A stretch of 64,000 nt of DNA from Deinococcales bacterium (GTDB taxonomy: Bacteria; Deinococcota; Deinococci; Deinococcales; JAAFIG01), in NCBI GenBank assembly GCA_043778225.1, contig JAYWGM010000092.1:4842-68841 (forward strand), read 5' to 3'. Shown here piece after piece: positions 9,921 to 60,776 of this stretch. Within the stretch, counting starts at the first letter, position 1; each line of letters opens with the position of its first letter. The translations under genes and the position numbers were made by a program. Below the pieces are notes generated by a model. It searched no databases. It saw nothing but the letters and a program-made list of their open reading frames with translations, and was not told the origin of the DNA.

Positions 9921-10640
9921 TTTCAGCCTATAGATTACCGTCAGTCAGTTGGCAGTACCCAAGATGAAATGCGAATTTTAGCTCGAGCAGGAGCGCCAGA
10001 ATACAGCCTTGTGTTGTCCGAAACACAAACGGCTGGGCGTGGGCGGCGTGGCAAAGTCTGGCAAGCTGCGCCTTATTCTGGCTTGTATTTTACCTTGCTG
10101 CTGCGCCCAGATTTGAACTTTGCCGCTTTTGCTTTACTGCCGCTTTTGATTGGGGCTTGTGTTGCCAAAAGTATCAACCTCGAGACTGGAATCAGCACGA
10201 TGCTAAAATGGAGCAACGATATTTTGAGTGCTGATGCTCGAAAATTTGCTGGTATTTTACTCGAGTCTGAATTGAGCCAAAAAAAAAGAATTGCTCTGGT
10301 TGGCATTGGTATCAATGTGCGAAACCAGGACTTTCCAGCCGAATTTAAGGCGGCGGCTTTAGAAGAATTTGCACCAGTTCATCGGCGTAATTTGCTGACC
10401 CAAATTCTACAAACCATCCAAGCTGAGTATCCACTTTTTCTCGAGCAACCAAGTCATGCAATAACTTTTTGGAAAGCCCAACCCAACTTTTTAGGGCAAG
10501 CTGTTCAGATTCTCGAGCCAAACGGTACGGTCAGCACAGGCATTGCCCAAGACCTCGACTCGAGTGGAGGTTTAATTATACAAACAGCCACTGGCTCGAG
10601 GCTACTTTATGCTGGGGAAGTTAGTTTGAAACGCGGTTAA
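9876..10640 (+). CDS. birA: biotin--[acetyl-CoA-carboxylase] ligase (no N-terminal HTH)
   Basis: 'TQTAGRGRRGKVWQAAP' is the biotin ligase GRGRxGR motif, and 'KWSNDI' is also present. The start overlaps the tsaE stop. Confidence 0.85.
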   Translation: MIDELHSPVIDELHSFQPIDYRQSVGSTQDEMRILARAGAPEYSLVLSETQTAGRGRRGKVWQAAPYSGLYFTLLLRPDLNFAAFALLPLLIGACVAKSINLETGISTMLKWSNDILSADARKFAGILLESELSQKKRIALVGIGINVRNQDFPAEFKAAALEEFAPVHRRNLLTQILQTIQAEYPLFLEQPSHAITFWKAQPNFLGQAVQILEPNGTVSTGIAQDLDSSGGLIIQTATGSRLLYAGEVSLKRG

Positions 10641-11088: not shown

Positions 11089-12309
11089 CCCAACCCATGC
11101 TTTGCCGTTCCACTGGCGGACATAGACCCGTTGTTGGGTTTGGGTAATTTCTTCGCTCCAAGCCACCACTGGCACACCGCTCCATGTGACTGCAAGGCTT
11201 GGGGTGGCGGCATAGGACTTGGGAGAGATGTTTAAGAATGTGCCGAGTTTTTTCCAAGCGTTGTTTTCCCAGCGCACGACCATGACTTTTAATGAACCAG
11301 CATTTTCGACCCAAGCCACATATGGGCGGTTGTTCGGGTCAAGGCGCAACCTTGGGCTGCTGGCTAAACCAGTGGCATTGTTGATGGTTTTTCCAAGGCG
11401 CTGCCAAGTTGTACCATCCCAGCGTTTGGCTGCCACATCAAAACCTAGGGTTGCCTCGAGCCACGCAATCACGGGGTAATCGTTGCTGTCTAAGTCAAAC
11501 GAAGGTTGGGCGGCATAACGTTCTTTATTGAGATTCAAGGAAGTTTCGCCAAGTGGCGACCAGTGTGCGCCGTCCCAGCCGCCAATATAGACGTTAAAAT
11601 CCTGTGGTCCTTTGTTGGGGATGTATTTTTGGACGCTCCAAGCCAAAATCGGCTGGTCTTTGGAATTGACACTCAGTTCTCTCGAGCGCGAGGCATGGGA
11701 AATGTCTGAACTGAGCGAACCGGGGTCAATATTCAGCCATTGTGTCCCATCCCAACGTTCGACAAAGTAACTATCGGCGTTAAAATCTGGGGTCAGTTCG
11801 CTCCAAGCTAAAACAGGATAGCCTTTGGAATCCACCCGCAGACTGGGTAAATCGCCAGCCGAATTTTCTTTTTTGCTGGGCGATGGATAGGCGTTCCAAC
11901 TCGAGCCAGTCCAACGTGCGACATAGACTTTACCGGGTCCTTTGCCTTTGCCATCAAACCCGGAATTGATGTTGCTGCGCTCTGTCCAAGATACATAAGG
12001 TGCGTCGTCTTTGGAAATGGCTAAAGAAACATTGAACGAATTAAAACTGGCATCGCGGTTTAACCGCCCACCAAGCGGTTGCCATTTTGTGCCAGTCCAG
12101 CGTTTGACAAACACATGGTAGACTCCACTGACATTCTCGAGCCATGCGACAATCGGTGTGCCGTTTTTCTCGAGAACCAACGAAGGGCGAATCGCATCGG
12201 CTTTGGGGTTGTTGTTGACTTGGGTAAAGGCGTTCTGGGTTTGACTTGTACCAACGCTCAAGAGTCCAAAGAATAGCAACAAACTCGAGATGATCAACTT
12301 TTTTATCAT
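11083..12309 (-). CDS. secreted protein with seven W-x-G-x-x-W repeats (putative 7-bladed beta-propeller)
   Basis: Signal peptide MIKKLIISSLLLFFGLLSVG. There are seven units of the type 'V(x)RW(D/T)G(x)xW(x)xLG'. An AGGAG SD precedes ATG 12309. Confidence 0.6.
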   Translation of the reverse strand: MIKKLIISSLLLFFGLLSVGTSQTQNAFTQVNNNPKADAIRPSLVLEKNGTPIVAWLENVSGVYHVFVKRWTGTKWQPLGGRLNRDASFNSFNVSLAISKDDAPYVSWTERSNINSGFDGKGKGPGKVYVARWTGSSWNAYPSPSKKENSAGDLPSLRVDSKGYPVLAWSELTPDFNADSYFVERWDGTQWLNIDPGSLSSDISHASRSRELSVNSKDQPILAWSVQKYIPNKGPQDFNVYIGGWDGAHWSPLGETSLNLNKERYAAQPSFDLDSNDYPVIAWLEATLGFDVAAKRWDGTTWQRLGKTINNATGLASSPRLRLDPNNRPYVAWVENAGSLKVMVVRWENNAWKKLGTFLNISPKSYAATPSLAVTWSGVPVVAWSEEITQTQQRVYVRQWNGKAWVGL

Positions 12310-12317
12310 GGATACTC

Positions 12318-13163
12318 CTATGGGCAAACATCGGTGATGATTTGGTCTGGAATCGGGTAGAGCGTTGGTTTCCCAGCGCCAAGACGGTACTGAATCACGG
12401 GCTGAGAAATAAACGTGTCATAACGCTTATTGGCATCTCTGAGGCGCGGACTCCCTTTGCAACTGAGTTTGATGCTCGAGCCAACAATGGCTACCCCAAA
12501 ACCACGTGAAGGCAAGATTTTAAGGTTAAGCGCATTGGAACTCACCAAACTCGAGCCTTCGGGCAGGCTTGGACTGCTGCCCGACATCCACTGCTCGAGT
12601 TTTCTAAAAAAAGTGCTGTCGTAACGCGGATTCATTAAAATTTTATCGTTCGAGACCCCTTTTGGTGCAAAGAGAATTTTGTCTACAAAAATCGTTTCGG
12701 GGGAATCGTTAAAAATCTGCATTGCTAAAAATAAGCGCTCGTTGGGTTGTTGTTGTAGCCGCTCATAAGAAAGAGGGTATTTCTGCAAAGGCTTTAGGTA
12801 CAAGACCCGAGAAGACGCAACCGCCACACTCGAGCCATTGATTTTGAGGCTGCTAAAAGTCGTGTCTAAACCAGCTTTAACATTCACCTCGAGTTCAAGG
12901 TTGCGCTTGCCAAAGGCATCCATGATGCGCCAGCTTTTTAAGGGTAAGCCAGTCACCGCAACCGTTTTTATATTATCCCCTGTGTTTGGGCTGGGCTTAC
13001 CACCAAAAGGATCGTTGGGGACAAGTGGCTGGGGGATTTCGTAATACAGCCGCAATGGGTCGCCGCCTTCCCATTCGTGGACAAAATGGACTCGAGGCTC
13101 GAGTTTTGGGGCTGGTGCAGCTAAGGCAGTCATGCCGAGCAGAACAAAAAATAATCTTTTCAT
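12318..13163 (-). CDS. secreted hypothetical protein
   Basis: Signal peptide MKRLFFVLLGMTALAAPAP. No recognisable domain. Co-oriented with pyrE, with a 4-nt overlap. Confidence 0.55.
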   Translation of the reverse strand: MKRLFFVLLGMTALAAPAPKLEPRVHFVHEWEGGDPLRLYYEIPQPLVPNDPFGGKPSPNTGDNIKTVAVTGLPLKSWRIMDAFGKRNLELEVNVKAGLDTTFSSLKINGSSVAVASSRVLYLKPLQKYPLSYERLQQQPNERLFLAMQIFNDSPETIFVDKILFAPKGVSNDKILMNPRYDSTFFRKLEQWMSGSSPSLPEGSSLVSSNALNLKILPSRGFGVAIVGSSIKLSCKGSPRLRDANKRYDTFISQPVIQYRLGAGKPTLYPIPDQIITDVCP

Positions 13164-13684
13164 ATCCCTAAACTGGTTTTACTGAACAGCGCTGTGCCAC
13201 TAAAACCAGCCGCCGCGATGTTTTCCTGTGCGCCTTGTTCACGGTTGACGACATAAACGATTTTTTGGACACTCGCCCCAAGTTCAGTCAATAAATTGGC
13301 GGCTCGAATTGCTTGGGCAGCTGTGGTCAGCACATCTTCAATCAGTGCAACCTTGGCATTTTCGGGCAGTAGACCTTCGATTAACTTGCTTGTGCCGTAT
13401 TCTTTTGCGCCTTTACGGACAATCACAAACGGTAGCCCAGTCTCGAGCGAGACCGCCGTTGCCAGTGGTACAGCCCCAAGTTCGACCCCAGCCAGACAAG
13501 TAATGCCTTGGGGCAGCAATCCCGCCAAGCCAATCGCAATATCGCGCAGCAGTTTTGGCTCGGTCGAAAAACGGTACTTATCCATGTAGTACCGACTGCG
13601 TTGTCCACTCGAGAGCAGAAAATCCCCCTCGAGATAAGCGGCTTGTACTAAGCGTTGCCCTACGGTTTTTGCGTCAAATGCCAT
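13160..13684 (-). CDS. pyrE: orotate phosphoribosyltransferase
   Basis: 'KVALIEDVLTTAAQ' is the PRPP-binding motif and 'FLLSSGQRSRYYMD' is also present. TATGAT lies 6 nt before the ATG (leaderless). Confidence 0.9.
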   Translation of the reverse strand: MAFDAKTVGQRLVQAAYLEGDFLLSSGQRSRYYMDKYRFSTEPKLLRDIAIGLAGLLPQGITCLAGVELGAVPLATAVSLETGLPFVIVRKGAKEYGTSKLIEGLLPENAKVALIEDVLTTAAQAIRAANLLTELGASVQKIVYVVNREQGAQENIAAAGFSGTALFSKTSLGI

Positions 13685-13705
13685 ACATTTATCATACCCT
13701 GACTC

Positions 13706-14206
13706 ATGTTACAATTGCTTCGTTCAGACAATTTAATCAGAGCGCTTGGCGCTCGAGGAGGCGTTCTTTTGCAACTTGAGGGAAACAACATCATTCAGGC
13801 GACTCCAGAACAGATTTTTATTGCCCTGCAAGACCCTGCGGTGCTGGCAAAGTGTGTCCCGGGGGTCAAAAAACTCGAGGTTGAATCCGAAGGGGTTTTT
13901 AAGACCACGCTCGAGGTGGCGGTCGGACCAGTCAAAGGCACATTCAACGGTAAAGTCAGTGTGCTTGAAAAACTCGAGAACACTGCCCTGACCTTAAAAG
14001 TCGAAATGCGTGCCCCAGTTGGAATTGCCAGTGCCATCGGGCGAGTGACGTTTCACCCCGAAGAAGGCGCAACCAGAGTCCATTGGAGTGGTGAACCACA
14101 ACTAGGCGGTATGATTGCCAGTGTTGGTGCGCGTCTGATTGGCGGCGTTGCCAAAGCCCAAGCTGATTTATTTTTCTCAAAACTCGAGCAAGAATTACGT
14201 CAATAA
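13706..14206 (+). CDS. coxG: CoxG/SRPBCC family protein
   Basis: 'PEQIFIALQDPAVLAKCVPGVKKLE...GPVKGTFNGKVSV' is the CoxG signature. The start position is uncertain. Confidence 0.7.
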   Translation: MLQLLRSDNLIRALGARGGVLLQLEGNNIIQATPEQIFIALQDPAVLAKCVPGVKKLEVESEGVFKTTLEVAVGPVKGTFNGKVSVLEKLENTALTLKVEMRAPVGIASAIGRVTFHPEEGATRVHWSGEPQLGGMIASVGARLIGGVAKAQADLFFSKLEQELRQ

Positions 14207-14294
14207 TTTTTTACGACTCATCGCGGGGTTGGAGGTGCAAATTTTTTAAGATAAGCAGCAATGGCAAACGTTTTTAGCTTAAAAGGAGATTTTT

Positions 14295-14771
14295 ATGGCA
14301 GACAAAGTTCCAATTACCCTGACCGTCAACGGCATCAAGCACAGCGCTCATGTCGAGCCACGCACCCTGTTGGTGCAATTTTTGCGCGAACAACTTTTTT
14401 TAACCGGCACGCACGTCGGTTGTGACACCAGCCAGTGCGGTTCTTGTACGATTCACATGGATGGTATGGCGGTCAAATCCTGCACGATGTTTGCGGTGCA
14501 AGCCAATGGCTCGAGCCTGACCACGATTGAAGGGCTTGGTGAGATTGGCAACCTCCACCCACTCCAAGAAGGTTTCTGGGAAATGCACGGTTTGCAATGC
14601 GGCTACTGCACCCCCGGGATGATCATGAGCGCCGCCGATTTGTTGCAGCACAACCCTCAGCCCACCGAAGCCGAAATCCGCCATGGACTCGAGGGAAATT
14701 TTTGCCGTTGCACTGGCTATCATAATATCATTAAAGCTGTTCAATACGCCGCCGATAAGATGGCAGGGTGA
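14295..14771 (+). CDS. coxS: (2Fe-2S)-binding small subunit of a CODH/xanthine dehydrogenase-family enzyme
   Basis: '[16 protein letters not shown]' and '[13 protein letters not shown]...CRCTGYHNI' are the two [2Fe-2S] motifs. Confidence 0.9.
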
Positions 14772-14823
14772 AAGGGTCAAAAGGTTAAAAGTTTTTCACA
14801 TTTAACCTTTTGACCCTTTCACC
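14767..14823 (+). repeat. perfect 23-bp-stem hairpin of the GGTNAAAAGG family (an 'empty' site)
   Basis: GGTGAAAGGGTCAAAAGGTTAAA (14767-14789), an 11-nt loop, then TTTAACCTTTTGACCCTTTCACC (14801-14823). It overlaps the coxS stop codon. Confidence 0.9.
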
Positions 14824-14851
14824 TTTTCACCTTCGCTTTTAAGGAGTTTCT

Positions 14852-17215
14852 ATGACCGAGAAGTATTTTGGTAAAGCCATGAAGCGCGTTGAAGACCCGC
14901 GTTTTATCACTGGGGCGGGGAATTATACCGATGACCTTGCGGTGCTGCACATGACCCATGCGGCGATGGTTCGCAGTCCGTATCCTCATGCGACGATTAA
15001 GAGCATTGACTCGAGTGTCGCGCTTGCGCTGCCGGGCGTGCTGGCGGTTCTGACGGGTAAGGATTTGGTTGGGGCGGGGATTAACCCAATTCCTACCGGT
15101 TGGTTGTTGCCAGACTTAAAAATCTCGGCACACCATGCGATTCAGCCCAACGAAGTCAATCATGTTGGCGATATTGTGGCAGCCGTCGTGGCAGAATCTC
15201 GAGCCATTGCCGAAGATGCCGTGGCTTTAATAGACGTGGATTACGAGGTTCTCGAGAGTTTATCTTTGGGTTCGGATGCCTTAGCCGAAGGCGCAGTTCA
15301 GGTTCATCCAGAAGCGCCGGGTAATTTGGCGTTTGACTGGACAATTGGCGATAGCGCCGCCGTAGATGCCGAATTTGCTAAGGCAGATAAAATCATTAAG
15401 CTCGAGCTTCGCAACCACCGCCTTGTGCCAAATGCGATCGAGCCTCGAGCCAGTCTTGCTGAGTACAAACGTGCCTCGGACGAGTACACACTGCACACCA
15501 CCAGCCAGAATCCGCACATTCACCGCGTCATGATTGGTGCGTTTGTGATGGGGATTCCAGAACATAAACTGCGAATTGTCAGCCCCGACGTTGGCGGCGG
15601 CTTTGGCAGTAAAATTTTCCAGTATCCCGAAGAAGTGATTGTGCTGTTTGCTGCTAAACGCTTAAACCGCCCAGTCAAATGGACTGCCCGCCGCTCGGAA
15701 TCGTTTGTCTCCGATGCTCATGGGCGCGACCACGAATCTGTTGCCGAAGCTGCAATTTCTAATGACGGAATGCTGCTGGCTTTGCGGGTCAGTACAATTG
15801 CCAACATGGGCGCATACCTGACCACCTTTGCGCCGGCTGTGCCAACTTATTTGTACGGCACACTCTTAAACGGCACATACAAATGGAAAGCCATTCATGC
15901 CCACGTGCGCGGGGTTTACACCAATACGGTGGGTGTGGATGCCTACCGTGGCGCAGGTCGCCCAGAAGCCACCTATTTGGTCGAGCGGATTGTCAGCATG
16001 GCAGCCCTCGAGCTAGGCATGGATGCCGCCGAGTTGCGCCGTAAAAACTTTATTCAACCCGATGAATTTCCGTACCAAACCCCAGTGGCGCTGCAATACG
16101 ACAGTGGCAATTATGAACCCGCGATGGACAAAGCCCTCGAGAAATTGGGTTATAAGCAGTTGCGGCTCGAGCAAGCCGAAATGCGAAAACAGGGCAAATA
16201 TATTGGGATAGGTGTCTCCACCTTTGTTGAAGCCTGTGGACTTGCGCCCAGTGCCTTGGTTGGTTCTTTAGGCGCACAAGCCGGGCAATGGGAATCTGCC
16301 TTAGTGCGCGTGGCTGCGACTGGCAAAGTCGAAGTTTTAACAGGCAGCCACAGCCACGGACAAGGACACGAAACCGCTTTTGCCCAAGTGGTTGCCGACG
16401 AACTACAAATCCCAGTTGAGGATGTGATGCTGGTACACGGCGATACCGCCCGTCTACCGCACGGATGGGGCAGTTATGGCTCGAGAAGTGCGCCAGTCGG
16501 ATTAAGCGCGATTACTTTAGCGTGTCGCAAAATTACTGATAAAGCCAAGAAAATCGCTGCCCATTTGCTCGAGGCTTCAAGCGAAGACATGGAACACGTC
16601 GGCGGAAATTTCCAAGTCAAAGGCGTTCCAGAACGCTCAAAATCCTTTTTTGAAGTCTCTTTGATGGCGCACCTTGCTCATAATTACCCAGCCGACCTAG
16701 AACCCGGACTCGAGGCAACCCATTTTTATGACCCGAAAAACTTTGTCTACCCATTTGGTACGCATTTAGCCGTGGTCGAAGTTGATGCCGATACTGGACG
16801 CACCAAACTGATTCGTTACGTCAGCGTGGATGACTGCGGACCTCGAGTCAATCCATTAATTGTGGATGGACAACTGCACGGCGGAATTGCCCAAGGCATG
16901 GGACAAGCCTTGCTCGAGAACACGGTTTACGATAAAAGTGGGCAACTGGTCAGTGGTTCATACCTTGAGTACACCATGCCTCGAGCCGATGACATGGTAC
17001 AAGTTGAACTTGACCACACCGTTACACCCAGCCCGCACAATCCACTCGGCTTAAAAGGCATTGGTGAAGCTGGCACAATCGCCAGTACCGCCGCCGTCGC
17101 CAATGCCGTCATGGATGCCCTCGAGCCATTTGGGGTTAAGCATCTGGATATGCCATTTACTGCCGAGAAAGTCTGGCGAATCATGCAGCCTAAACTGCTC
17201 GAAGCCGCAGATTAA
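14852..17215 (+). CDS. coxL: molybdopterin-binding large subunit, form-II CoxL-like
   Basis: 787 aa. 'GGGFGSK' is present, and the active-site loop reads 'VDAYRGAGRPEA', which is the AYRGAGR form-II motif rather than the form-I VAYRCSFR. Confidence 0.85.
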   Translation: MTEKYFGKAMKRVEDPRFITGAGNYTDDLAVLHMTHAAMVRSPYPHATIKSIDSSVALALPGVLAVLTGKDLVGAGINPIPTGWLLPDLKISAHHAIQPNEVNHVGDIVAAVVAESRAIAEDAVALIDVDYEVLESLSLGSDALAEGAVQVHPEAPGNLAFDWTIGDSAAVDAEFAKADKIIKLELRNHRLVPNAIEPRASLAEYKRASDEYTLHTTSQNPHIHRVMIGAFVMGIPEHKLRIVSPDVGGGFGSKIFQYPEEVIVLFAAKRLNRPVKWTARRSESFVSDAHGRDHESVAEAAISNDGMLLALRVSTIANMGAYLTTFAPAVPTYLYGTLLNGTYKWKAIHAHVRGVYTNTVGVDAYRGAGRPEATYLVERIVSMAALELGMDAAELRRKNFIQPDEFPYQTPVALQYDSGNYEPAMDKALEKLGYKQLRLEQAEMRKQGKYIGIGVSTFVEACGLAPSALVGSLGAQAGQWESALVRVAATGKVEVLTGSHSHGQGHETAFAQVVADELQIPVEDVMLVHGDTARLPHGWGSYGSRSAPVGLSAITLACRKITDKAKKIAAHLLEASSEDMEHVGGNFQVKGVPERSKSFFEVSLMAHLAHNYPADLEPGLEATHFYDPKNFVYPFGTHLAVVEVDADTGRTKLIRYVSVDDCGPRVNPLIVDGQLHGGIAQGMGQALLENTVYDKSGQLVSGSYLEYTMPRADDMVQVELDHTVTPSPHNPLGLKGIGEAGTIASTAAVANAVMDALEPFGVKHLDMPFTAEKVWRIMQPKLLEAAD

Positions 17216-17220
17216 GAGCA

Positions 17221-17683
17221 GGGGTAAAAGGTCAAAAGGAGAAAAGGTAAAAAGTGGATGTCCGAGATAGGGTTGAACGATTTGAAGACTTGATGGTTTG
17301 GCAAAAAGCTCGAGTTTTGACTAAGGAAGTTTACCGAATGACAAGTATAGGACAGTTCGCTCGAGATTTTGGGCTGAGTCAACAGATTCAGCGTGCTTCT
17401 GTGTCCATGATGTCAAATTTAGCCGAGGGATTTGAACGAGGAGGACGTGCAGAGTTTCATCAGTTTATTGTGATTGCTAAGGCATCATGTGCAGAAGTTC
17501 GTTGTCAACTCTACATTGCCTTAGATGTTGGCTACATCAATCAACTTGAGTTTGATGCCTTAAAAATCAAAGCCGAAGAAATCTCCAAACTCCTAAGCCG
17601 CCTAAAATCTTCTGTCGCCGCCCAACTCAAAAAGAACTAACCACCACAACCTTTTAACCTTTTTCCCCTTTGCCCTTTTCACC
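17221..17683 (+). other. hairpin-bounded insertion carrying the four-helix-bundle gene (IVS-like element)
   Basis: Left arm GGGGTAAAAGGTCAAAAGGAGAAAAGGTAAAAAGTGG (17221-17257). Right arm CCACCACAACCTTTTAACCTTTTTCCCCTTTGCCCTTTTCACC (17641-17683). The arms are imperfectly complementary and belong to the same word family as 14767-14823. Confidence 0.6.
17254..17640 (+). CDS. four-helix-bundle protein ('23S rRNA intervening sequence protein' family, Avd-like)
   Basis: '[21 protein letters not shown]...[47 protein letters not shown]' is the characteristic signature. GTG start inside the left arm. Confidence 0.8.
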
Positions 17684-52480: not shown

Positions 52481-53290
52481 ATGAAACAAAGGCTGGTGCT
52501 GTTTTTGATGCTGTTCTCGAGCCTAGCGTTAAGTGCTGTGCCGGACGAAAAATCTTGGCTCGAGGTGGTCGTGCAACAAGCCAATCAGCCAAATGTGGCA
52601 ATGTATGATTTACAAAAGGTAGCTGACTTAAACCAAGGCACATTTTTGACCGACACCACACGGGCAACGTTAAGATTTCAAAAACGGATTACTTATGTTT
52701 TCCCTAACAGCTTTGATGTGATTGTGGATGGTCAAGATATTCGTTTGAATGCGCCAGTCTTACTTAAAGATAAACGTTGGCTTGCGCCACGTGTGCTGCT
52801 CGAGGCATTGCAACTTAAAGCCCCAACCGCCATCGAAGACGATGCGCCTTTACAAACCCTCGAGTTGCCTTGGGAAAACCTCGAGCTAAAATCTGGCGTG
52901 TCTGGTTTGCATCTTTTTTATACTTCTGAATATAATTCGGTGGATGACGCGAGTATTTTTTTGATGCCATTTGAACTGGTCTCGAGCTTAGACAAAGACT
53001 TGCAAACCTCGGTGCGAAATGTCTTGGCGAACCTCAACTTAAATCAAGCCGGTAAAATTTTATACTTCTCGGTAGCAACCGAAAAAGGCAGCAATCCGAT
53101 TGACCAACTCGAGTTTATTCAAGGAGCAACTCGCTATGCAGTCGAAAATGGGGCAGGGTTGTACAGTTTTTCTGGAGTTTTCCCAAAAGCCAGCCTAGGA
53201 GCGGTCAAACTCCCAAGCAGTTTTAATCTGCGCCAACCCATCCGAATTATTTGGGGCGATTCCAGCGCAGATTATGTGTTTGTTCGTTAG
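52481..53290 (+). CDS. secreted hypothetical protein
   Basis: Signal peptide MKQRLVLFLMLFSSLALSA. TAGACT (52468-52473) lies 7 nt before the ATG. Confidence 0.5.
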   Translation: MKQRLVLFLMLFSSLALSAVPDEKSWLEVVVQQANQPNVAMYDLQKVADLNQGTFLTDTTRATLRFQKRITYVFPNSFDVIVDGQDIRLNAPVLLKDKRWLAPRVLLEALQLKAPTAIEDDAPLQTLELPWENLELKSGVSGLHLFYTSEYNSVDDASIFLMPFELVSSLDKDLQTSVRNVLANLNLNQAGKILYFSVATEKGSNPIDQLEFIQGATRYAVENGAGLYSFSGVFPKASLGAVKLPSSFNLRQPIRIIWGDSSADYVFVR

Positions 53291-53425
53291 GAGTGCATCA
53301 CGAACGTGCTTTGGCTGAGTTGGCTTGGGATGCCTGTCAAAAATTTTGCTGCCATGTCGGCTTTCTTTGAAAATGCACTTGGTCTCGAGTTATAAAGTCG
53401 AGACCAGTTCAGTTCAAGGTTCTCT

Positions 53426-54733
53426 TTAGCGGCTGTTGCCACGTCCACGGCGTTGGATGCTCGAGGGTCGTGGGTGTTCACTGCGTGGTGTACCAGCCCC
53501 TTGTTGGGTTGTGGCAGTGCGTCCAGCTTGCGGTGAGCGCCTTGGGGCATTGCGACGTGGGTCGCCTTGTCTCGAGTCACCACGGTCTACGGTCATTTTT
53601 TCGCCAACCGCTTTGTAATTAAAGCCTTCGACCCATGAGCGCGGCAGTTTTTGTTGAATGGCACGTTCGATGTCGAATAATTGCCCTTCTTCTTCTTTGC
53701 TAAAAAAAGTCAGGGCTTCACCAGTCCGTTCGGCTCGAGCCGTGCGCCCAACACGGTGAATATAATCTTCGGGGATGGCTGGAACATCGAAGTTAATCAC
53801 ATATTCAAGGTCTTGAACATCAATACCTCGAGCCGCGATGTCGGTTGCCACCAAGACTCGGTACTTACCCGACTTAAAGCCTTTGAGGGCTTCGGTGCGC
53901 TGTGATTGGCTGCGGTTGCCATGAATTCGTTCGCAGTTTACGCCATACCCACTCAAGTATTTTTGTAACCCATTAGCACGGTGTTTGGTGCGGGTAAAGA
54001 CAATCACACTTTCCATTGGGTTTTGTGCCAGCATCTCGAGTAGCAGCGCAGGCTTGAGGCTTTGTGGCACAGGATAACAACTCTGGGTGATGCCCGTGGC
54101 GGGTTTGGCTTGGCGCTCGACGTTTAATGTAATCGGGCGGTTTAGTAAGTCCTTGGCGAGTTGCCCAATCTGGGTGGGCATGGTTGCTGAGAAAAACAGT
54201 GTTTGTTGCGGCTTTGGAATGTGCTGCAAAATCTTTTTGATGCTTGGTAAAAAACCCATGTCGAGCATACGGTCAGCTTCGTCAAAAACCAAGACCTCGA
54301 GACTATTTAATTTGGCGTAATTGTACTGAAAATGATCCATTAAACGCCCGGGGGTGGCAATCAAAATATCGATGCCGCGCTCGAATGCCTGAACCTGTCC
54401 TTTCATTGGTACACCACCAAAAATCGTGGCGCTTTTGACGGGTGCGTACTTACCTAGTTCTTGGATGGCTTCGTGAATCTGCATGGCGAGTTCTCGAGTT
54501 GGGCAAAGAATAAGCGCTCTGGTAACACCACGGGTTTTTTTGAATAAACGCTCTAAAATCGGCAACACAAAAGCGGCGGTCTTGCCACTGCCAGTCATGG
54601 CGCAACCCAGCACATCTCGACCCTCGAGGGCTGGTGGGAGGGCTTTTTCTTGAATATCGGTCGGGTTTTCGTAACCCGCGTCTTTAATTCCACGTAAGAG
54701 CGAGCCATGTAAGGCAAATTTTTCAAATGACAT
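53426..54733 (-). CDS. DEAD-box ATP-dependent RNA helicase
   Basis: Q motif, 'AMTGSGKTAAF', 'VFDEADRMLDMGF', 'SAT', 'HRVGRTARA' and an Arg/Gly-rich tail. Confidence 0.95.
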   Translation of the reverse strand: MSFEKFALHGSLLRGIKDAGYENPTDIQEKALPPALEGRDVLGCAMTGSGKTAAFVLPILERLFKKTRGVTRALILCPTRELAMQIHEAIQELGKYAPVKSATIFGGVPMKGQVQAFERGIDILIATPGRLMDHFQYNYAKLNSLEVLVFDEADRMLDMGFLPSIKKILQHIPKPQQTLFFSATMPTQIGQLAKDLLNRPITLNVERQAKPATGITQSCYPVPQSLKPALLLEMLAQNPMESVIVFTRTKHRANGLQKYLSGYGVNCERIHGNRSQSQRTEALKGFKSGKYRVLVATDIAARGIDVQDLEYVINFDVPAIPEDYIHRVGRTARAERTGEALTFFSKEEEGQLFDIERAIQQKLPRSWVEGFNYKAVGEKMTVDRGDSRQGDPRRNAPRRSPQAGRTATTQQGAGTPRSEHPRPSSIQRRGRGNSR

Positions 54734-55079
54734 ATTGTAATCCTGTAAACCACGAAACCTCGAGATTCAGGACGAGAGGCGTAGAAAAGAAAGAGGCGAA
54801 CTCGAGCGCAAGCAGCCGTCCTGATGAAAGGCTTGCAACAACTGTCTAGCATACACCAACAATAGTGAAAGTCATGGGCAAAATAGCCTAAGTATCTACC
54901 GCCTTTGTTTTAGATTTTTCAAAATACGGCAAATCTGTCACTTCAGCGGTAGATACGCTGTCCTTACTCCTTCTAGTCGCAAAATGTTTTAGGAAAAACA
55001 CCTAAAACATTTCGGGGAGATACTTAGGTGGTGATTTTGGGTTGACGAGCGGATACTTGACAAAAAATTGTGGACTTAA

Positions 55080-55679
55080 TTAACGCGAAGTCATATGAAC
55101 CAGAATTCCTAGGATAGCCTCGAGTTCGGTCAATGTATATTCACGAATATCCAAGGTGACTTGTGTTCCCTCGAGTTGTAAAAATCGCCAATCTGTACCA
55201 CTGGTGACAGCGCCAAAAATCTTTTCTCGAGCCTGATTACGGGCTTGATTAAAACGTTGTGCCGCGATCATCTCTGCTACACACTGGGCAATCCCGCCAG
55301 ATAAATCTTCACGTTTTGCCTCTACAAGCATCACCACAGGGGCTTGTACTTGAATTAAAAGTGGGTCTTGGCTGATTAAAAAGTCACAGAAACCATGTAA
55401 ACCAAGTTTTTTATCAACATTGAATGCTACGCCAGAAAAAACAGCAATTCGCTGCTCGAGGATTTCACGAATCTCGACTAGAATGGGGGCGATAATATGT
55501 TCGGAACGGGCTTTTTCTGTGCCTTTGCCAATCACAAGTGGTAAATTGCGTTTGAGTACAGCGGTTAGTAAATCGCTGGCTTTTTGAAGTTTGACTTGGG
55601 CAAATAAATCTTTATTCTGCACAATAGAAAGTGCAAATCGTTGTATCAGTAAATCCAAGGTGAAGCCTTCGTATGCCAT
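55080..55679 (-). CDS. PD-(D/E)xK nuclease-superfamily protein (HsdR-N-like)
   Basis: 'GFCDFLIS...VVMLVEAKRED' gives a D...ExK arrangement. CTCGAG density is native-like (4 copies in 600 bp). Confidence 0.5.
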   Translation of the reverse strand: MAYEGFTLDLLIQRFALSIVQNKDLFAQVKLQKASDLLTAVLKRNLPLVIGKGTEKARSEHIIAPILVEIREILEQRIAVFSGVAFNVDKKLGLHGFCDFLISQDPLLIQVQAPVVMLVEAKREDLSGGIAQCVAEMIAAQRFNQARNQAREKIFGAVTSGTDWRFLQLEGTQVTLDIREYTLTELEAILGILVHMTSR

Positions 55680-55708
55680 AGCGTTAGCCTAGCACAGCAT
55701 CTAGCTGT

Positions 55709-55784
55709 TTATAGATACTTTTCGAGCCAACCTAGATACTCTTTTAGCCTAAAGACCCGCCTATCTGGTCTGCCGCTTTTCGAG
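55709..55784 (-). pseudogene. orphan copy of the last 25 codons plus stop of the S9 peptidase gene (left direct repeat)
   Basis: Encodes ..SKSGRPDRRVFRLKEYLGWLEKYL*, versus ..SRSGRPDRRVFRLKEYLGWLEQHL* in the live gene at 58475-58550. The 63-nt core is 59/63 identical. Confidence 0.85.
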
Positions 55785-55860
55785 TTTATTTTATACCGAG
55801 TCTCAAGTCGCTCGAATAAAATCATTTACGCAACGAAATTGTTCGAGGTTGAACATAGCT

Positions 55861-55969
55861 GTGTCAATAATGCTAGTCTATGGATTGGGATTATATCACT
55901 CAAGAAGATTTGGCGGCAACACCTACATTTGGTGTCAATAATGCTAGTCTATGGATTGGGATTATATCA
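55861..55969 (+). repeat. perfect 38-bp direct repeat with a 33-bp spacer
   Basis: GTGTCAATAATGCTAGTCTATGGATTGGGATTATATCA occurs at 55861-55898 and 55932-55969, at the 5' end of the REase-like gene. Confidence 0.95.
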
Positions 55970-56896
55970 ATGGTCATTACAAGAAATCTTCATACCCAAA
56001 AAGCTGAAATTTTGCGCTATTTGCGAGACCGCGCCTCAGAAGCTTATGGCGAAATTGTGGTGGTTTATGGCGAGCGTGACTTCAAAAAAAGAGGCACAGC
56101 GATCAATCAAGCAATTGCAAAAACCATTTCAAATTTGAAGACCATTATTGTGCAACGGGCTGCAAGTCAAAATTGGAATCAAGAAGAGAAGTTAAAAAAT
56201 ATTCTTATTGTGACTTACTGTTCTTATGTTGTGATGATTGAATTTAGAAATATGGTTTGGGCATACGAATATATGGCTTTTTCTCGAAGAATTGGCGAAT
56301 TGTGGGATCCTTTTTGTAGACTTTGTTTTGATTATCCTGTACGCAGCGATATTGAACTTTATGAACCACCACTTTTTTCAGAAGTCAAAGAACAACTTCA
56401 AAATGAAATTCGGATTTATATTGCGAATCTTTATTTGACTCAAGAAGAAAAAAGTAGGCTTGTTTCTTACTATGATAAGGTTTGGAGCTTGGTGACTTCT
56501 GGCGAGATTCAGTTGGAACTTGACCTCCATTTTCGTATTGGAGATATTAATTTCAATGTTGATTTTAAGAGTGGGTTTCAATCAAATGAAAAAGGAAATA
56601 CAAATCGCCTACTTTTGGTGGCTTCAATTTATAAAAATATATTGAGTTCAAATAATGAGTGTCTTTTGCTTGTTCGAGCCAATGAAGATGAGAACAATAA
56701 TTATTTGCAAACACTCAAGAACTCGGGTATTTGGAGTGTCTATTGTGGTGCGCAAGCCTACGAGAAAATTTATCAGTACAGTGGTTTTGATTTGGCTGAT
56801 TGGATACAAAATAATGTTTCTTGGATAACAGATTTTCTGCCTGAAACACATCAATATCTCGAGCAAAATGACCTAGCGAAGTATTTAATATGGTAG
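55880..56896 (+). CDS. putative type II restriction endonuclease (start uncertain)
   Basis: 338-aa AT-rich ORF overlapping the MTase start by 7 nt, with a weak PD-(D/E)xK-like 'ELDLHF..GDINFNVDFK'. The call rests mainly on context. Because the 71-nt repeat period shifts the frame, an alternative ATG at 55970 is possible. Confidence 0.4.
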   Translation: MDWDYITQEDLAATPTFGVNNASLWIGIISMVITRNLHTQKAEILRYLRDRASEAYGEIVVVYGERDFKKRGTAINQAIAKTISNLKTIIVQRAASQNWNQEEKLKNILIVTYCSYVVMIEFRNMVWAYEYMAFSRRIGELWDPFCRLCFDYPVRSDIELYEPPLFSEVKEQLQNEIRIYIANLYLTQEEKSRLVSYYDKVWSLVTSGEIQLELDLHFRIGDINFNVDFKSGFQSNEKGNTNRLLLVASIYKNILSSNNECLLLVRANEDENNNYLQTLKNSGIWSVYCGAQAYEKIYQYSGFDLADWIQNNVSWITDFLPETHQYLEQNDLAKYLIW

Positions 56897-58395
56897 GGAC
56901 AGTCTCGAGAAAACGAAATGAGTTTCAGGCATTTTATACAAACTGCAATGATATTACTTCTTACATGGTTGGGTTATTGGACTGTCAAGCGGGAATGTCA
57001 ATTTTAGAGCCATGCGCTGGAGATGGGGCGATTATAGACGAATTGCTTAAGCAAAATTCTCGAGCGCAAATTTCTGCTTTTGAAATGAACAACCAAAGTG
57101 TAAGCAATCTTAAAAGAAAATATCGAATGGTCAACACAGTTCAAATTACTGGGGTCGATTTTACGCAATATCATTCGCAAAACACTTATGACAGAATTAT
57201 TGCCAATCCTCCATATGGTGCTTATCAAACCCTTGAAAAACGGGCAGAACTCAAAAATGAGTATCCAGATTTATATGCCAAAGAAACTTACGGAATCTTT
57301 TTGGCAAAAGCCATAGAAATGCTTTTGCCAAAAGGACGTTTAGTATTTATCGTTCCAGATACTTTTTTGACACTGCATATGCACCAAGGATTAAGAAAAA
57401 AACTACTTCTCGAGTGCAAAATTGAGTCTATTACACTATTCCCATCGCATTTTTTCCCCAGTGTTCATTTTGGCTATGCAGGACTTTGTATTATTTCGGC
57501 TTGCAAAGATGTGGCACATGAATGTGATTTTCCTGTTTATAAAGGTTTGACAAGTACCCAAGACCTCAAAATCTTACTGACACCACAAAAAGTCAGTTTT
57601 GAGATTTGTCAGCTTTCCTACAGGCAAATAAAAACGAATCCTGCCCATTCTTTTTATCTATCTAATGATTTACAGATTCAAACTTTGCTCGAACAAGGTT
57701 TACCGACGCTCGAAAATATCTGTGATGTTGTGACCGGATTTTATTCTGGAAACGATGCAATATATCTTAGGAGAGCCGAAAAAGTGAAACGTGGAGTTCA
57801 TAAATATAAAACTATTGAACTTGATTTGATTTATCAAGAACCCACGCCTTCGCTTGAGGGAATTGAAGCAGCAAACTATTGGATACCTATTGTTAAAGGT
57901 GGTAACAGGCGTTTCTATAAACCGTCTGAATGGTTTATGGACTGGAGTAAAAACGCGATTCACGACTATAAAGTGGTCAATAAGAAGAAAGCTAGATTTC
58001 AAAATTCGCAATTTTATTTTCGACAAGGAATTGCCGTACCAATGGTTTCGTCGAGTGCAATAACGGCGGCACTCATCAACAATAGATTATTTGACCAATC
58101 AATTGTTGGAATTTTCCCAAAAGAGGATTACCAGTTTTTACTGATGTATCTGCTTGGATTTTTTAACTCGAGTATCTGTAATCGTTTTATCCGAATCATT
58201 AACGCAAGCACCAATAACTCATCAAACTATATCAAAAAAATCCCATTTTTGATGCCCAATAAAGATCAAATTGATACTGTTTCTAGCTTAGTAGTTGGGC
58301 TGTGTGAACTTGCAAATTACAGAGAAATTAAGGCATCTGATTTACACACTCTGGATACAGTTTTTGAACAAATTTATCAACTCAAGAGCATCTAA
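56890..58395 (+). CDS. N6-adenine DNA methyltransferase, gamma class (TaqI/Eco57I-like)
   Basis: Motif I 'ILEPCAGDGAII', motif IV 'IIANPPYG', then 'YGIFLAKAIEMLLPKGRLVFIVPDTFL'. The C-terminal target-recognition region is unassigned. Confidence 0.85.
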   Translation: MVGTVSRKRNEFQAFYTNCNDITSYMVGLLDCQAGMSILEPCAGDGAIIDELLKQNSRAQISAFEMNNQSVSNLKRKYRMVNTVQITGVDFTQYHSQNTYDRIIANPPYGAYQTLEKRAELKNEYPDLYAKETYGIFLAKAIEMLLPKGRLVFIVPDTFLTLHMHQGLRKKLLLECKIESITLFPSHFFPSVHFGYAGLCIISACKDVAHECDFPVYKGLTSTQDLKILLTPQKVSFEICQLSYRQIKTNPAHSFYLSNDLQIQTLLEQGLPTLENICDVVTGFYSGNDAIYLRRAEKVKRGVHKYKTIELDLIYQEPTPSLEGIEAANYWIPIVKGGNRRFYKPSEWFMDWSKNAIHDYKVVNKKKARFQNSQFYFRQGIAVPMVSSSAITAALINNRLFDQSIVGIFPKEDYQFLLMYLLGFFNSSICNRFIRIINASTNNSSNYIKKIPFLMPNKDQIDTVSSLVVGLCELANYREIKASDLHTLDTVFEQIYQLKSI

Positions 58396-58474
58396 ATGCT
58401 TACTGAACTATGCACCACAAGTCAATTTTGTAGTGCATGCAAACTCAAGGATTGTGATTTCTCGAGCCGAACTT

Positions 58475-60394
58475 TTACAGGTGCTGCTCGAGCCAACCTA
58501 AATACTCTTTTAACCTAAAGACCCGCCTATCTGGTCTGCCACTTCTCGAGAGTTCGTGGTTCTCGGCTGGAAAACGCACCAAACGGGTTGGTACACCTAA
58601 ATTCTTGAGCGCCACAAACCACTGCTCGGCTTGCTCGATTGGGCAACGGTGGTCCTCCTCTGAATGCACAATTAAACATGGTGTCTTGACATTTTTAATG
58701 TGTTTAAGCGGCGATTTTTCCCAGAGCCGATCAAAATCTTCTGGGACTTTGCCGCGCAATTCTCGAGGCACAAAGCGGTAGCCAATGTCAGATGTGCCGT
58801 TAAACGAGACCCAATTGCAAATGCTGCGGTCGGTAATTGCTGCCTTAAAGCGTTGGCTGTGTGAAATTGCCCAGTTGACCATTAAGCCGCCGTAGCTTCC
58901 ACCAACAATCGCAATGCGTTTTGGGTCTAAATAAGTATGTTGATCTAAACAAGTGTCTAAAAACGCCATCAGGTCAGCATAGTCGCCGTTTAGGTAATCG
59001 CCACCAATTCCAGCCGTTTGGGCATCGCCGTAGCCCGTGCTGCCGCGAATGTTGCAAAATGCGACCGCATAGCCAGCCGCCGCGAGGGTCTGAAATTCGT
59101 TCATGTAGGCATAGCCCCAAGCCGTGGCAGGTCCGCCGTGGACATTTAAGACCATCGGGTACTTTTTGCCGCGTTTTTTCTCGAGTGGGTGCAGCAGCCA
59201 ACCTTCTATGGTGTAACCTTCGCGGATAAAGCGAAGATGCTCGAGGTCGCGTCCGGCGGCACTTTTGTTAAAATCCGAAAGCTGTTTACCGACAAAATGC
59301 AGTTCGCAAGGGTGGGCATGATGCTCGAGTAAATAGGCAATTCGACCATCTTTGGTGGCAGCAAAGGCTGGAACGCTTGAGGATTGCGGCTCGATTCGGG
59401 TTTTGAGCTTGCCATCCAAGGTCAGTTCATAAACGCCACTGCTGCCGCCTTTTTGGGCTAAGGTCAGAATTGTTTGGTCGTCGAGCCAGATTGGCGTAAG
59501 CGGGTAATTGCCAAGGTGCGAATCGGAATTGACGGTTTGTCCAATCCAGAGGTCGTGTTCTGCGCCAATTGGCTCGAGTTGAGATTTACTCTCGAGTTTG
59601 CCGACGTACAAATGCAGGTCGCCCGGCTGATCGGCAAAATCTGGGTCGGCAACCACGGCATAACGTAAGCCATCTGGCGAGACCGCAATTTGCCCAATAA
59701 AGCCACGAAAATCGGTCAAGCGCCGTGGTTTTTTCTTACCGAGCAACAACAAAAAGACTTCAGTTTGCCACTGCTGGGCTGCCTCGAGATTGCGGGCTGC
59801 CACAAAAACCAGTCCCCAACCATCGGGAAGCCAAGCAAAACTTTCGATGTCGGTGCTGTGGCTCGAGATGACCTCGAGTTTTTGAGTCTCGAGGTCAAGC
59901 ACATACAGCGCTAAGGGTTCGGTTGGCAGGAAACCGATATTGGGTATCCCATTGGATTTATAACGCAGATGCTCGACCACCCGAGGCAGCCCGTCTTCTT
60001 GGGCGGTGTCTGTCCAATCGCCACGCGATAAAAAAGCCACCCGAGTCCCATCGCTCGAGAATTGCGGATTTGCAACACCAGATTTGAGGTCGGTCAGTTT
60101 GCGAGGTTCGCCGCCGGTCATTGAAACTGTAAATAGTTGTGGTTTTTTATCCACGACTCGAGTAAAAATAAGCGCCGTGCCATCTGGAGAAAATCTGGGC
60201 TGGCTGTCTTTGTGTTCGCCAGACGTAAAGCGCTGTACGGCTTGGTCGTGGCTCGAGACAAAAATCCCCGAGGTATAGGATTTTTTATCGCTTGCCACTT
60301 CGGTCATCACACAAGCCACATACTGCCCATCGGCGGATACAATTGGTTCGGAGGCAATTTTTAAGCCATACAAAGATTCGGCAATTTGAGTCAT
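58475..60394 (-). CDS. S9-family serine peptidase (acylaminoacyl/prolyl oligopeptidase-like)
   Basis: Beta-propeller N-domain, 'IVGGSYGGLM' (GxSxGG nucleophile elbow) and 'HSEEDHRCP'. ATG 60394 is preferred to 60466. Confidence 0.85.
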   Translation of the reverse strand: MTQIAESLYGLKIASEPIVSADGQYVACVMTEVASDKKSYTSGIFVSSHDQAVQRFTSGEHKDSQPRFSPDGTALIFTRVVDKKPQLFTVSMTGGEPRKLTDLKSGVANPQFSSDGTRVAFLSRGDWTDTAQEDGLPRVVEHLRYKSNGIPNIGFLPTEPLALYVLDLETQKLEVISSHSTDIESFAWLPDGWGLVFVAARNLEAAQQWQTEVFLLLLGKKKPRRLTDFRGFIGQIAVSPDGLRYAVVADPDFADQPGDLHLYVGKLESKSQLEPIGAEHDLWIGQTVNSDSHLGNYPLTPIWLDDQTILTLAQKGGSSGVYELTLDGKLKTRIEPQSSSVPAFAATKDGRIAYLLEHHAHPCELHFVGKQLSDFNKSAAGRDLEHLRFIREGYTIEGWLLHPLEKKRGKKYPMVLNVHGGPATAWGYAYMNEFQTLAAAGYAVAFCNIRGSTGYGDAQTAGIGGDYLNGDYADLMAFLDTCLDQHTYLDPKRIAIVGGSYGGLMVNWAISHSQRFKAAITDRSICNWVSFNGTSDIGYRFVPRELRGKVPEDFDRLWEKSPLKHIKNVKTPCLIVHSEEDHRCPIEQAEQWFVALKNLGVPTRLVRFPAENHELSRSGRPDRRVFRLKEYLGWLEQHL

Positions 60395-60776
60395 GCCCAA
60401 TAGCATACCGCGTGGTAGGCTTGAAGACGTGCATCTCGACCCAATTTCGGCGGTCTGGCTGGTCATCAGTAACCAAATAGCGGCTGATGAGCGGATTACT
60501 TTGCAATCTGGAGAAGAAAAATACGCCCTAATTTTTACTGATTTGGCTGTAGCTCATGAGTTTATGCGCGATATGCAAGACCCAAATTTATTCCTTGAGC
60601 GGCTCGAGAACTGGGTTTTTAAGGAAACTTTTTTAACCACCCTGAGGCTTTTATCGGTCACTCGAGTGATGTTTGATTATGCCCAAGGTCAGCACAACGC
60701 ACTTTCCGCGCCGCTTGACTTGTTGCAGGCGCACTGCAAAGCCCAAATTGGCACACGCCCTCGAGCCGAAGCCTGA
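60393..60776 (+). CDS. hypothetical protein (start uncertain; GTG 60429 possible)
   Basis: 127-aa ORF divergent from the peptidase gene. 'YALIFTDLAVAHEFM' is faintly SseB-like, which is not enough for a call. Confidence 0.35.
   Translation: MPNSIPRGRLEDVHLDPISAVWLVISNQIAADERITLQSGEEKYALIFTDLAVAHEFMRDMQDPNLFLERLENWVFKETFLTTLRLLSVTRVMFDYAQGQHNALSAPLDLLQAHCKAQIGTRPRAEA

Follow-up and report, generated by a model that had tools for sequence, protein, structure and literature searches.

An islet of restriction-modification genes between two copies of a peptidase gene end in an uncultured, CTCGAG-rich Deinococcales bacterium

Introduction

Nobusato and colleagues are said to have described, in 2000, the insertion of restriction-modification (R-M) genes with a long duplication of the target. 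In Furuta 2010 (PMC2853133), such insertions were recognized by the presence of both restriction (R) and modification (M) genes, an insert of <20 kb, a duplication of >30 bp, no mobility genes, and an alignment with a single-copy sequence without the insert. The examples given there include repeats lying over the 3' end of a gene (in H. influenzae) and a Thermus case, and the repeats are typically 93–100% identical. Here we describe an R-M unit of similar organization in a 64-kb window of DNA from an uncultured Deinococcales bacterium (contig JAYWGM010000092.1; 'the window' is this whole analysed stretch, and positions refer to it). The unit lies between two copies of the 3' end of a gene for an S9 (prolyl-oligopeptidase family) peptidase. 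A preliminary description, made from the sequence alone, had proposed that the unit was inserted with a long duplication of this gene end, and had added that such insertions were known from other bacteria. Furuta 2010 (PMC2853133) does describe them, and its criteria, relatives with empty sites and a PADLOC REase_II match together support the proposal.

The window is also rich in the hexamer CTCGAG, which stands at one boundary of the duplication. Described parallels are HIP1 and the alternate highly iterated palindromes (HIPs) of cyanobacteria, for which an association with a cognate methyltransferase is known (Elhai 2015, PMC4390886). No paper that treats CTCGAG as an iterated palindrome was found in the literature searched.

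Results

The end of the peptidase gene is duplicated around the R-M unit

The peptidase gene occupies 58475–60466 on the minus strand (Pfam Peptidase_S9, 2.5e-46, and PD40); gene callers placed its start at 60406, which gives 643 amino acids (aa; gene calls on L001). Its 3' end occurs twice. A repeat finder returned one family (D1), in which positions 55708–55784 match 58474–58550 as a direct repeat of 77 nucleotides (nt) with 68/77 identical (88%), a spacing of 2766 and a longest perfect run of 27 nt. The 63-nt core of the repeat gave a BLAST E value of 1.5e-22 in a 3-kb search space. Read in the direction of the peptidase gene (minus strand), the repeat comprises one base, 24 sense codons and the stop codon. 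Similarity stops right after a hexamer on the outer side and, on the other side, one base past the peptidase stop codon. The live copy (58474–58550, minus strand; ..SRSGRPDRRVFRLKEYLGWLEQHL*) forms the last 24 codons and stop of the peptidase gene, and the orphan copy (55708–55784, minus strand; ..SKSGRPDRRVFRLKEYLGWLEKYL*) is no longer attached to a gene. The preliminary description had given the duplication as 76 bp with 25 codons and a stop; the duplication itself stands, but its size needed the correction above. Its positions for the hexamers were exact: CTCGAG at 58487–58492 and 58545–58550 in the live copy, and TTCGAG at 55721–55726 and 55779–55784 in the orphan. The repeat has only these two copies in the window, and Logan depth over them equals that of the flanks.

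Between the copies lies an insert of 2,689 nt (55785–58473) with a G+C content (GC) of 0.363, compared with 0.489 for the rest of the window. It contains two substantial open reading frames (ORFs), a restriction endonuclease (REase) gene and a DNA methyltransferase (MTase) gene; the other ORFs are short and mostly lie inside or overlap these two, on either strand. This agrees with the earlier account of 2.7 kb of much lower G+C carrying R-M genes only. We found no integrase, transposase or recombinase fragment among the ORFs of the insert, and no tyrosine or serine recombinase ORF within 55080–60466. Non-coding DNA amounts to only 185 + 78 nt: a left end upstream of the REase gene (55785–55969, plus strand), which contains a perfect 38-nt direct repeat, and a right end from the MTase stop to the live peptidase stop (58396–58473), which contains one CTCGAG (58461–58466) 7 nt from the junction. 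The predicted fold of the 78-nt spacer as a hairpin was no better than that of shuffled sequences (z −0.94), and promoter and terminator scans gave nothing above background.

A repeated gene end of this kind might also be left by an integrase-mediated island that used the gene's 3' end as a surrogate to form attL and attR, as prophages do in icd, and later lost its integrase. Imperfect direct repeats over the 3' end of an intact gene are typical of such islands (also discussed in PMC2853133). Nevertheless, we hold this origin to be very unlikely. The 2,689-bp insert has no integrase, recombinase fragment or further substantial ORF, and little non-coding DNA; substitutions specific to the host lineage are present in both repeat copies (see below); and homologous units elsewhere are found without such repeats or nearby integrases.

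The arrangement is real, and relatives have an empty site

All genomes compared in this study are metagenome assemblies. The islet arrangement was the same in two ENA scaffolds from two samples (L002, 100%; L001, one mismatch in 13,111 nt), and each repeat copy lay with its unique flanks inside a single Logan contig in two runs. Logan depth was even over the islet and its flanks (~13x in X1, ~26x in X2, from biofilm samples), except for an approximate doubling over 55788–55971, the left end of the insert. Because the two copies differ at 9 positions, an assembler could not have collapsed or duplicated them. An assembly artefact, named earlier as a result that would undo the duplication, is ruled out by this agreement between independent assemblies of two samples and the Logan contigs. 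No joint that skips the islet was found in the Logan contigs of X1–X4 and X6, which are blind to rare forms; in X4 and X6 the organism was present at only ~2x.

Originally, the peptidase gene was followed downstream by a gene of the PD-(D/E)xK family (55080–55679, minus strand, 199 aa; PADLOC PD_DExK, 2.5e-49), as the preliminary description had it. In the related locus L007, the peptidase gene ends at 9965 and is followed after 48 nt by the PD-(D/E)xK gene (90% aa identity) and a DEAD helicase gene (92%), with no REase or MTase gene. In L146 the peptidase gene is likewise followed directly by a 199-aa PD-(D/E)xK gene. These two loci are the empty sites that comparison with relatives was expected to reveal, with the peptidase stop directly followed by the PD-(D/E)xK gene. 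L143 and L144 have only the last ~25 codons of the PD-(D/E)xK gene between the peptidase and DEAD helicase genes, and in L145 the peptidase gene is followed by other genes. In none of the four related lineages (L007, L143, L145, L146) were R-M genes found downstream of the peptidase gene, so relatives do not all share the arrangement. The orphan copy lies 29 nt upstream of the start of the PD-(D/E)xK gene, which is the exact place of the peptidase 3' end in L007 and L146.

The unit was thus inserted rather than ancestral. In principle an ancestral unit could have been lost from relatives through recombination between its repeats, since direct repeats can mediate precise deletion, and the use of metagenome assemblies throughout might raise the suspicion of an artefact. 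Both ideas seem to us extremely improbable: low GC and a deficit of CTCGAG mark the insert as foreign, four separate lineages are without R-M genes at the site, and independent assemblies agree on two copies that differ at 9 positions and have even depth.

The duplication arose within the lineage of the host

We aligned the last 100 nt of eight peptidase genes and used the relatives to polarize the nine differences between the repeat copies. Five derived states set both copies apart from every close relative: GAT, GTC, AAA (K for N), TAT and GGT (G for N/D/A). Both copies also end in TAA, whereas L007 and L005 have TGA. These shared derived states indicate that the copies are each other's closest relatives and that the duplication arose within this lineage.

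Five of the nine differences were derived in the orphan, three in the live copy, and one was ambiguous. The orphan's changes are all transitions: both CTCGAG sites became CTCGAA (coding orientation), AGT became AGC, TAC became TAT and CTG became CTA. Those of the live copy are one synonymous change and two replacements, K to Q and Y to H. The contrast reported earlier between ..GWLEKYL* in the orphan and ..GWLEQHL* in the live gene is therefore correct, with the orphan keeping the ancestral EKYL of the closest relatives. C-terminal tails vary in this peptidase family (EKYL, EQHL, EEHL, ETHL, ERWL and others).

Two ideas of mixed ancestry were tried and set aside. One was that the live tail came from another donor and was joined at the inner CTCGAG, given EQHL versus EKYL and the uneven spread of differences (4/13 versus 5/64); we rejected it as the main reading because the stop TAA and five core substitutions are shared by the copies and the replaced residues are hypervariable. 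The other was that the left and right flanks differ in origin, given their aa identity to L007 (90–92% on the left, 57–77% on the right). It was rejected because four-fold-site identity to L007 is alike to the left and to the right of the islet, at 0.52–0.56 for almost every gene (orf269, 0.46), so the flanks share one history.

Age of the insertion and gain of CTCGAG by the insert

The orphan has accumulated ~0.07 changes per site. The Jukes-Cantor-corrected four-fold-site distance to L007 is ~0.74, or ~0.37 per lineage. On these figures, about one-fifth to two-fifths of the time that has passed since this lineage and that of L007 separated would lie after the insertion.

The insert contains 6 CTCGAG sites, compared with 0.29 expected from its composition (P = 7e-7) and 17.4 expected at the density of the host (P = 0.0016). 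It also includes the largest and the third-largest CTCGAG-free gaps in the window. The homologous R-M units found elsewhere have no CTCGAG. At the positions of the insert's five coding sites the homologues have unrelated hexamers, and several of the sites needed aa changes, for example VKRK to VSRK. Comparison with the homologues thus shows that CTCGAG sites have been gained de novo in foreign DNA, and that the insert is being converted towards the sequence style of its host. The insertion itself is old, as the 9 differences between the copies show, together with the 6 CTCGAG sites in the insert that are missing from its homologues.

Proposed course of the insertion

We propose that an R-M unit was inserted with a long target duplication of the peptidase 3' end in an ancestor of this lineage, and we give this reading a probability of about 0.7. 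The unit would have entered the ancestor of the present population within the final 76 nt of its S9 peptidase gene. The 77 nt of target that it doubled would begin with the C of a CTCGAG, in the codons for ..LSRSG.., and reach one base beyond the stop codon. The copy beside the MTase end would then complete the peptidase ORF and keep the gene whole, and the copy beside the REase end would be the displaced original target, orphaned before its old neighbour, the PD-(D/E)xK gene. The duplication may have arisen while foreign DNA was being taken up, through break-and-join that involved either staggered breaks or two copies of the chromosome; mechanisms of this class have been put forward for insertions with long target duplication. 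Cultured Deinococcus is naturally transformable and polyploid, and by analogy the present lineage plausibly is as well. After the insertion, the orphan would have decayed by transitions, losing both CTCGAG sites, while the live copy changed from KY to QH and the insert gained CTCGAG. Because only a 27-nt perfect run is left between the repeats, the unit would now be effectively locked in, and its spread, if any, would occur together with its flanks by homologous recombination.

Several points weigh against this proposal. Firstly, the genomes with an empty site are distant (four-fold-site identity ~0.53; peptidase ≤79% aa identity), and for this reason the pre-insertion sequence is reconstructed rather than observed; a search for closer relatives gave nothing above 79% with the peptidase, and a metagenome scan with the PD-(D/E)xK protein gave only relatives at ≤52% identity. 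Secondly, no flanking direct repeats were found at five loci with homologous R-M units (L136, L137, L140–L142), which implies that the mechanism of duplication is not a property of this R-M family. Thirdly, the duplicated segment starts exactly at CTCGAG and ends exactly at the stop codon plus one base, which random staggered breaks do not predict. Lastly, the last 13 nt of the repeat are more diverged than the rest (4/13 versus 5/64 differences; Fisher P = 0.04); we attribute this to the K-to-Q and Y-to-H replacements in the live gene, which lie at hypervariable positions of its C terminus.

Sequence variation at the locus (about 58650–59260) was observed in run X2. There the islet and its left flank match the window without a difference, and the dominant peptidase contig has 31 differences, all in 59072–59258. 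A low-depth contig of the same run has 18 differences in 58863–59032, which places the left edge of the patch between 58632 and 58863; to the right of 59258 there are no differences. The divergent allele looks like a short imported recombination tract that adjoins the islet, and such a patch would mean that homologous recombination shuffles the peptidase locus within the population.

This mosaicism in the peptidase gene speaks for an alternative course, namely homology-facilitated illegitimate recombination. Here a close donor would already have had the R-M genes downstream of its own peptidase gene; the imported DNA would have been anchored in the peptidase gene and its far end joined illegitimately at CTCGAG in the recipient's 3' end, so that the live copy would be the donor's and the orphan the recipient's. 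The outer junction abuts the commonest hexamer of the genome, and no microhomology would be more readily to hand; the live tail has EQHL where the orphan and all closest relatives have EKYL; and Deinococcus is naturally transformable. Even so, we consider the import unlikely. It requires an earlier and unexplained insertion in the donor, and the five lineage-specific substitutions and the TAA shared by the copies would make that donor almost the same lineage. The Q and H that set the live tail apart are at hypervariable positions, and no donor-type arrangement was found among the relatives searched.

CTCGAG is very common, and its place at the outer junction is probably incidental

The preliminary description had stated that the junctions coincide with CTCGAG or TTCGAG. 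This was true of the outer hexamer, where similarity ends, but not of the inner one, which is internal to the repeat: homology runs on through the stop codon, where the second true junction lies, 7 nt from the nearest CTCGAG. Both repeat hexamers are old features of the peptidase gene that are present in relatives.

We counted 403 CTCGAG sites in the window, compared with 8.0 expected (~50-fold), or one per 159 bp. The sites are spread evenly, at 4–19 per 2 kb, with the minimum in the bin that contains the islet. One-off variants of the hexamer occur only 0–23 times each in the window. Density is 6.3/kb inside and 6.2/kb outside long ORFs, with the CTC-GAG frame preferred, and 45–60% of the sites are kept at orthologous positions in relatives. 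The excess is a property of the clade, with 4.3–6.5/kb over nine loci (L005–L009, L143–L146), even in a member with a GC of 0.61. It is weaker in metagenome-assembled genomes (MAGs) of Trueperaceae and other Deinococcota (1.2–2.9/kb), and in Deinococcus it is absent (~0.06/kb). A random junction abuts CTCGAG exactly with P = 0.013 and falls within 1 nt of it with P = 0.038, and two sites fall within 77 nt with P = 0.09. The suggestion that the hexamers were recombination breakpoints thus lost its force: there is one site per 159 bp, abutment by chance has a probability of 1.3–3.8%, and no junction lies at the inner hexamer. We concluded that the presence of CTCGAG at the outer junction is in all likelihood incidental. 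The genome's commonest hexamer was at most used as microhomology; a mechanistic role is possible but unproven.

One such role would be cut-and-join directed by CTCGAG, in which a nuclease specific for the hexamer, the islet REase or another, cut both the chromosome and the incoming DNA, and the ends were ligated. Enzymes specific for TCGA and for CTCGAG belong to the gamma class of MTases, the broad class that holds both M.TaqI and the islet MTase. Similarity ends exactly at the outer hexamer (0.013 for exact abutment by chance), and at the other end of the insert a CTCGAG lies 7 nt inside (58461–58466). With a site every 159 bp, however, the coincidence is weak, and it was spotted post hoc; the other junction is at the stop codon and not at a site, with the inner hexamer internal. 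Moreover, homologous units occur in hosts without a CTCGAG excess, and the excess occurs in relatives without the unit at this locus. We therefore think cut-and-join improbable.

The same comparison bears on the unit as a whole. Loci that carry homologous R-M units have 0–1 CTCGAG per locus, and relatives without the unit at this locus share the excess; hence nothing ties the R-M unit to CTCGAG. Nor is the islet MTase an obvious cognate of CTCGAG, because it is missing at the locus in relatives that share the excess.

As an over-represented, dispersed palindrome shared by the clade, CTCGAG has the characters of a HIP-like element. A more speculative reading, which we regard as doubtful, is that an active process keeps this element at about one per 160 bp and that it doubles as a preferred joining or recombination point for incoming DNA. 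The R-M unit might then have entered at the peptidase CTCGAG and later been 'HIP-ified' with six sites. The role of CTCGAG as an insertion or joining site rests on a single junction; the gain of sites in foreign DNA is the half of this reading that the insert itself shows.

The two genes form a compact Type II R-M unit

The REase gene (55970–56896, plus strand, 308 aa) gave a full-length match to PADLOC PDLC03405 REase_II (E = 6.8e-96), and its product has conserved D185 and D198-x-K200. Homologues numbered 2,336, and the best 120 of these are mostly 304–312 aa long. We take the ATG at 55970 as the true start because relatives are 308–310 aa. The preliminary description had called a putative REase with its start at 55880; the identity holds, but the 30-codon N-terminal extension of that 338-aa ORF is a product of the 38-nt repeat, which supplies an in-frame ATG. 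This perfect direct repeat (55861–55898 and 55932–55969) is unique in the window, and its second copy adjoins the REase ATG; it might be a duplicated promoter or operator. The regions upstream of the homologous R-M units showed no similarity to the left end of the islet, and the 38-nt repeat is missing there.

In an alignment of 53 members, D198 and K200 were invariant and D185 was conserved in at least 90%. An AlphaFold2 model of the REase (predicted local distance difference test score, pLDDT, 92.3) placed the catalytic residues on beta-strands. Foldseek returned only weak local matches of ~90 residues to PD-(D/E)xK domains (Cdn1, Can2, NucS, OkrAI, SgrAI); none had E <0.06, and no Pfam, NCBIfam or PDB sequence match was found. 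The REase is thus a predicted nuclease with a core of the PD-(D/E)xK type.

The MTase gene (56890–58395, plus strand, 501 aa) encodes a gamma-class N6-adenine DNA methyltransferase with motif I EPCAGDG and motif IV NPPY. Pfam matches were Eco57I (1.6e-17), N6_Mtase (2.2e-10) and a weak TaqI_C; in the PDB the N-terminal domain matched M.TaqI and the C-terminal part matched BREX PglX/BrxX; NCBIfam and PADLOC gave PglX-like and MTase_II matches. The Eco57I, N6_Mtase and M.TaqI matches uphold the initial assignment to TaqI/Eco57I-like N6-adenine methyltransferases. The two ORFs share 7 nt at the REase stop, an overlap that points to translational coupling of the genes, and an R-to-M pair with a 7-nt overlap was found in 5 of the 7 homologue loci read. 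Both ORFs are intact, and the conserved catalytic residues argue that function has probably been retained.

Homologous R-M pairs (56–76% aa identity; GC of 0.33–0.34 where measured, at L136, L137 and L140–L142) were found in Chamaesiphon, in MAGs of Desulfobacterales and Proteobacteria, and in other metagenome contigs that are unassigned. In Chamaesiphon and the metagenome contig L140, the pair lies ~80 nt downstream of bipA; in Desulfobacterales, Proteobacteria and the further unassigned contigs, it is always in a different context. Judged by its sequence relatives, the islet appears to be a compact and widely transferred Type II R-M unit that was acquired horizontally and has no mobility gene.

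A homologue of the islet MTase (61% identity) was also observed, without an REase, on a T4-like phage contig (L138/L139: 4057–6518) with ribonucleotide reductase genes and Phage_T4_Y07C. It overlaps a second MTase (N6_N4) in the manner of an operon, and the two are probably a pair of anti-restriction methylases.

Other palindromes are avoided

Outside the insert (55785–58473), the window has no GGCC, where 352 were expected. RCATGY is absent among 209 CATG sites (~30 expected from relatives, which have 2–15 per locus), and CTTAAG is absent, compared with ~10 expected and 17 in relatives. Also missing from the window outside the insert are GGCGCC, TGCGCA, GCGCGC, CCGCGG, GGTACC, GTGCAC, CTGCAG and others. 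Avoidance of this extent suggests that the genome may have been under heavy and partly lineage-specific restriction pressure; the avoidance of RCATGY and CTTAAG is specific to this genome. Site avoidance was tried as a route to the specificity of the R-M unit and gave no assignment: loci with homologous units show no shortage of RCATGY or CTTAAG, and for many palindromes the depletion is general.

The surroundings of the peptidase gene vary among relatives

The PD-(D/E)xK gene behaves as a variable passenger that is present in the window, L007 and L146, deleted in L143 and absent from L145. In L143 (6933–7010) and L144, only its 3' end (..TLDIREYSLTELEAILGILVHMT) remains directly after the peptidase stop; the deletion endpoint in L143 is at a ACCTTGGAT motif, which the intact gene carries close to each of its ends. 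A second ORF of 199 aa is present in L146. In L007, ~5.4 kb (12078–17498) including a 1,080-aa ORF lies between the DEAD helicase gene and the orf269 homologue, which are adjacent in the window (53290–53426). A RskA/ECF-sigma pair is in the window, L007 and L005 and is missing in L143, L145 and L146. The peptidase neighbourhood is a hotspot for changes in gene content.

Between the DEAD helicase and PD-(D/E)xK genes we observed an element of ~140 nt that resembles a miniature inverted-repeat transposable element (MITE), at 54887–55028, with terminal inverted repeats (CCTAAGTATCT...AGATACTTAGG). No second copy was present in the window or at the relatives' loci. Logan depth over the element was 115–299x, compared with 13–26x in the flanks, so it is multi-copy in the genome or the community.

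Discussion

The locus offers a case of an R-M unit that moved without a mobility gene, in a phylum with few documented cases, and for which empty sites, polarized substitutions and an age estimate are in hand. It suggests that such insertions can persist, with both genes intact, long after their repeats have diverged too far for excision. It also illustrates that a hexamer 'at the junction' means little before its genome-wide frequency is known.

The by-product of the analysis may matter more. With the clade-wide excess of CTCGAG, and with GGCC and RCATGY almost wholly missing, the HIP phenomenon reaches outside cyanobacteria; through the dated foreign insert, the speed and manner in which palindromes are created become directly accessible. 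If CTCGAG did serve as a joining point, the islet would be a natural record, with a date attached, of how iterated palindromes come into being. The clade-wide excess and the de novo gain of sites in the dated insert are the most unusual things that we saw.

HIP1 sites are less dense than the one CTCGAG per 159 bp of the window. Otherwise CTCGAG is, like HIP1 (PMC4390886), a short GC-containing palindrome in ~50-fold excess, in coding and non-coding DNA alike, clade-wide and with partly conserved positions; it differs as a hexamer rather than an octamer, and as an element of a Deinococcales host rather than of cyanobacteria.

Compared with Type IIP R-M systems that have gamma-class (NPPY) MTases of the Eco57I/TaqI/PglX-like kind, the islet has the same order of MTase motifs and the corresponding Pfam and PDB matches, and its REase shares the full-length PDLC03405 profile match and the conserved D..DxK. 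In contrast to those systems, this REase is without a Pfam or NCBIfam family or a solved structural relative, and the R gene comes first, overlaps the M gene by 7 nt and is not accompanied by a controller protein.

The prophage e14 and phage 21 integrate in icd and supply a surrogate gene end. The islet resembles them in its imperfect duplication of a 3' end, in the intact gene and in the orphan copy at the other end of the insert; it differs in the absence of an integrase or phage genes and in that both copies come from one host lineage.

The nearest likeness is to the cases of Furuta 2010 (PMC2853133). As there, R and M genes alone make up an insert of 2,689 nt (<20 kb) without a mobility gene and of lower GC than the host, and the repeat, at 77 nt (>30 bp), lies over the 3' end of a flanking gene, as in H. 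influenzae. A single-copy site with similarity on both sides is present in L007 and L146, in a comparison that is interspecific, between species or genera, where that of the paper was intraspecific. The repeats are 88% identical instead of the typical 93–100%, which points to an old, fixed event and not a recent polymorphism. The phylum Deinococcota was already represented by Thermus, whereas the present host is uncultured and has a hyper-abundant hexamer that the insert is acquiring. We conclude that the islet is a fresh example of a known route of R-M insertion, unusual mainly for its age and for the iterated hexamer of its host.

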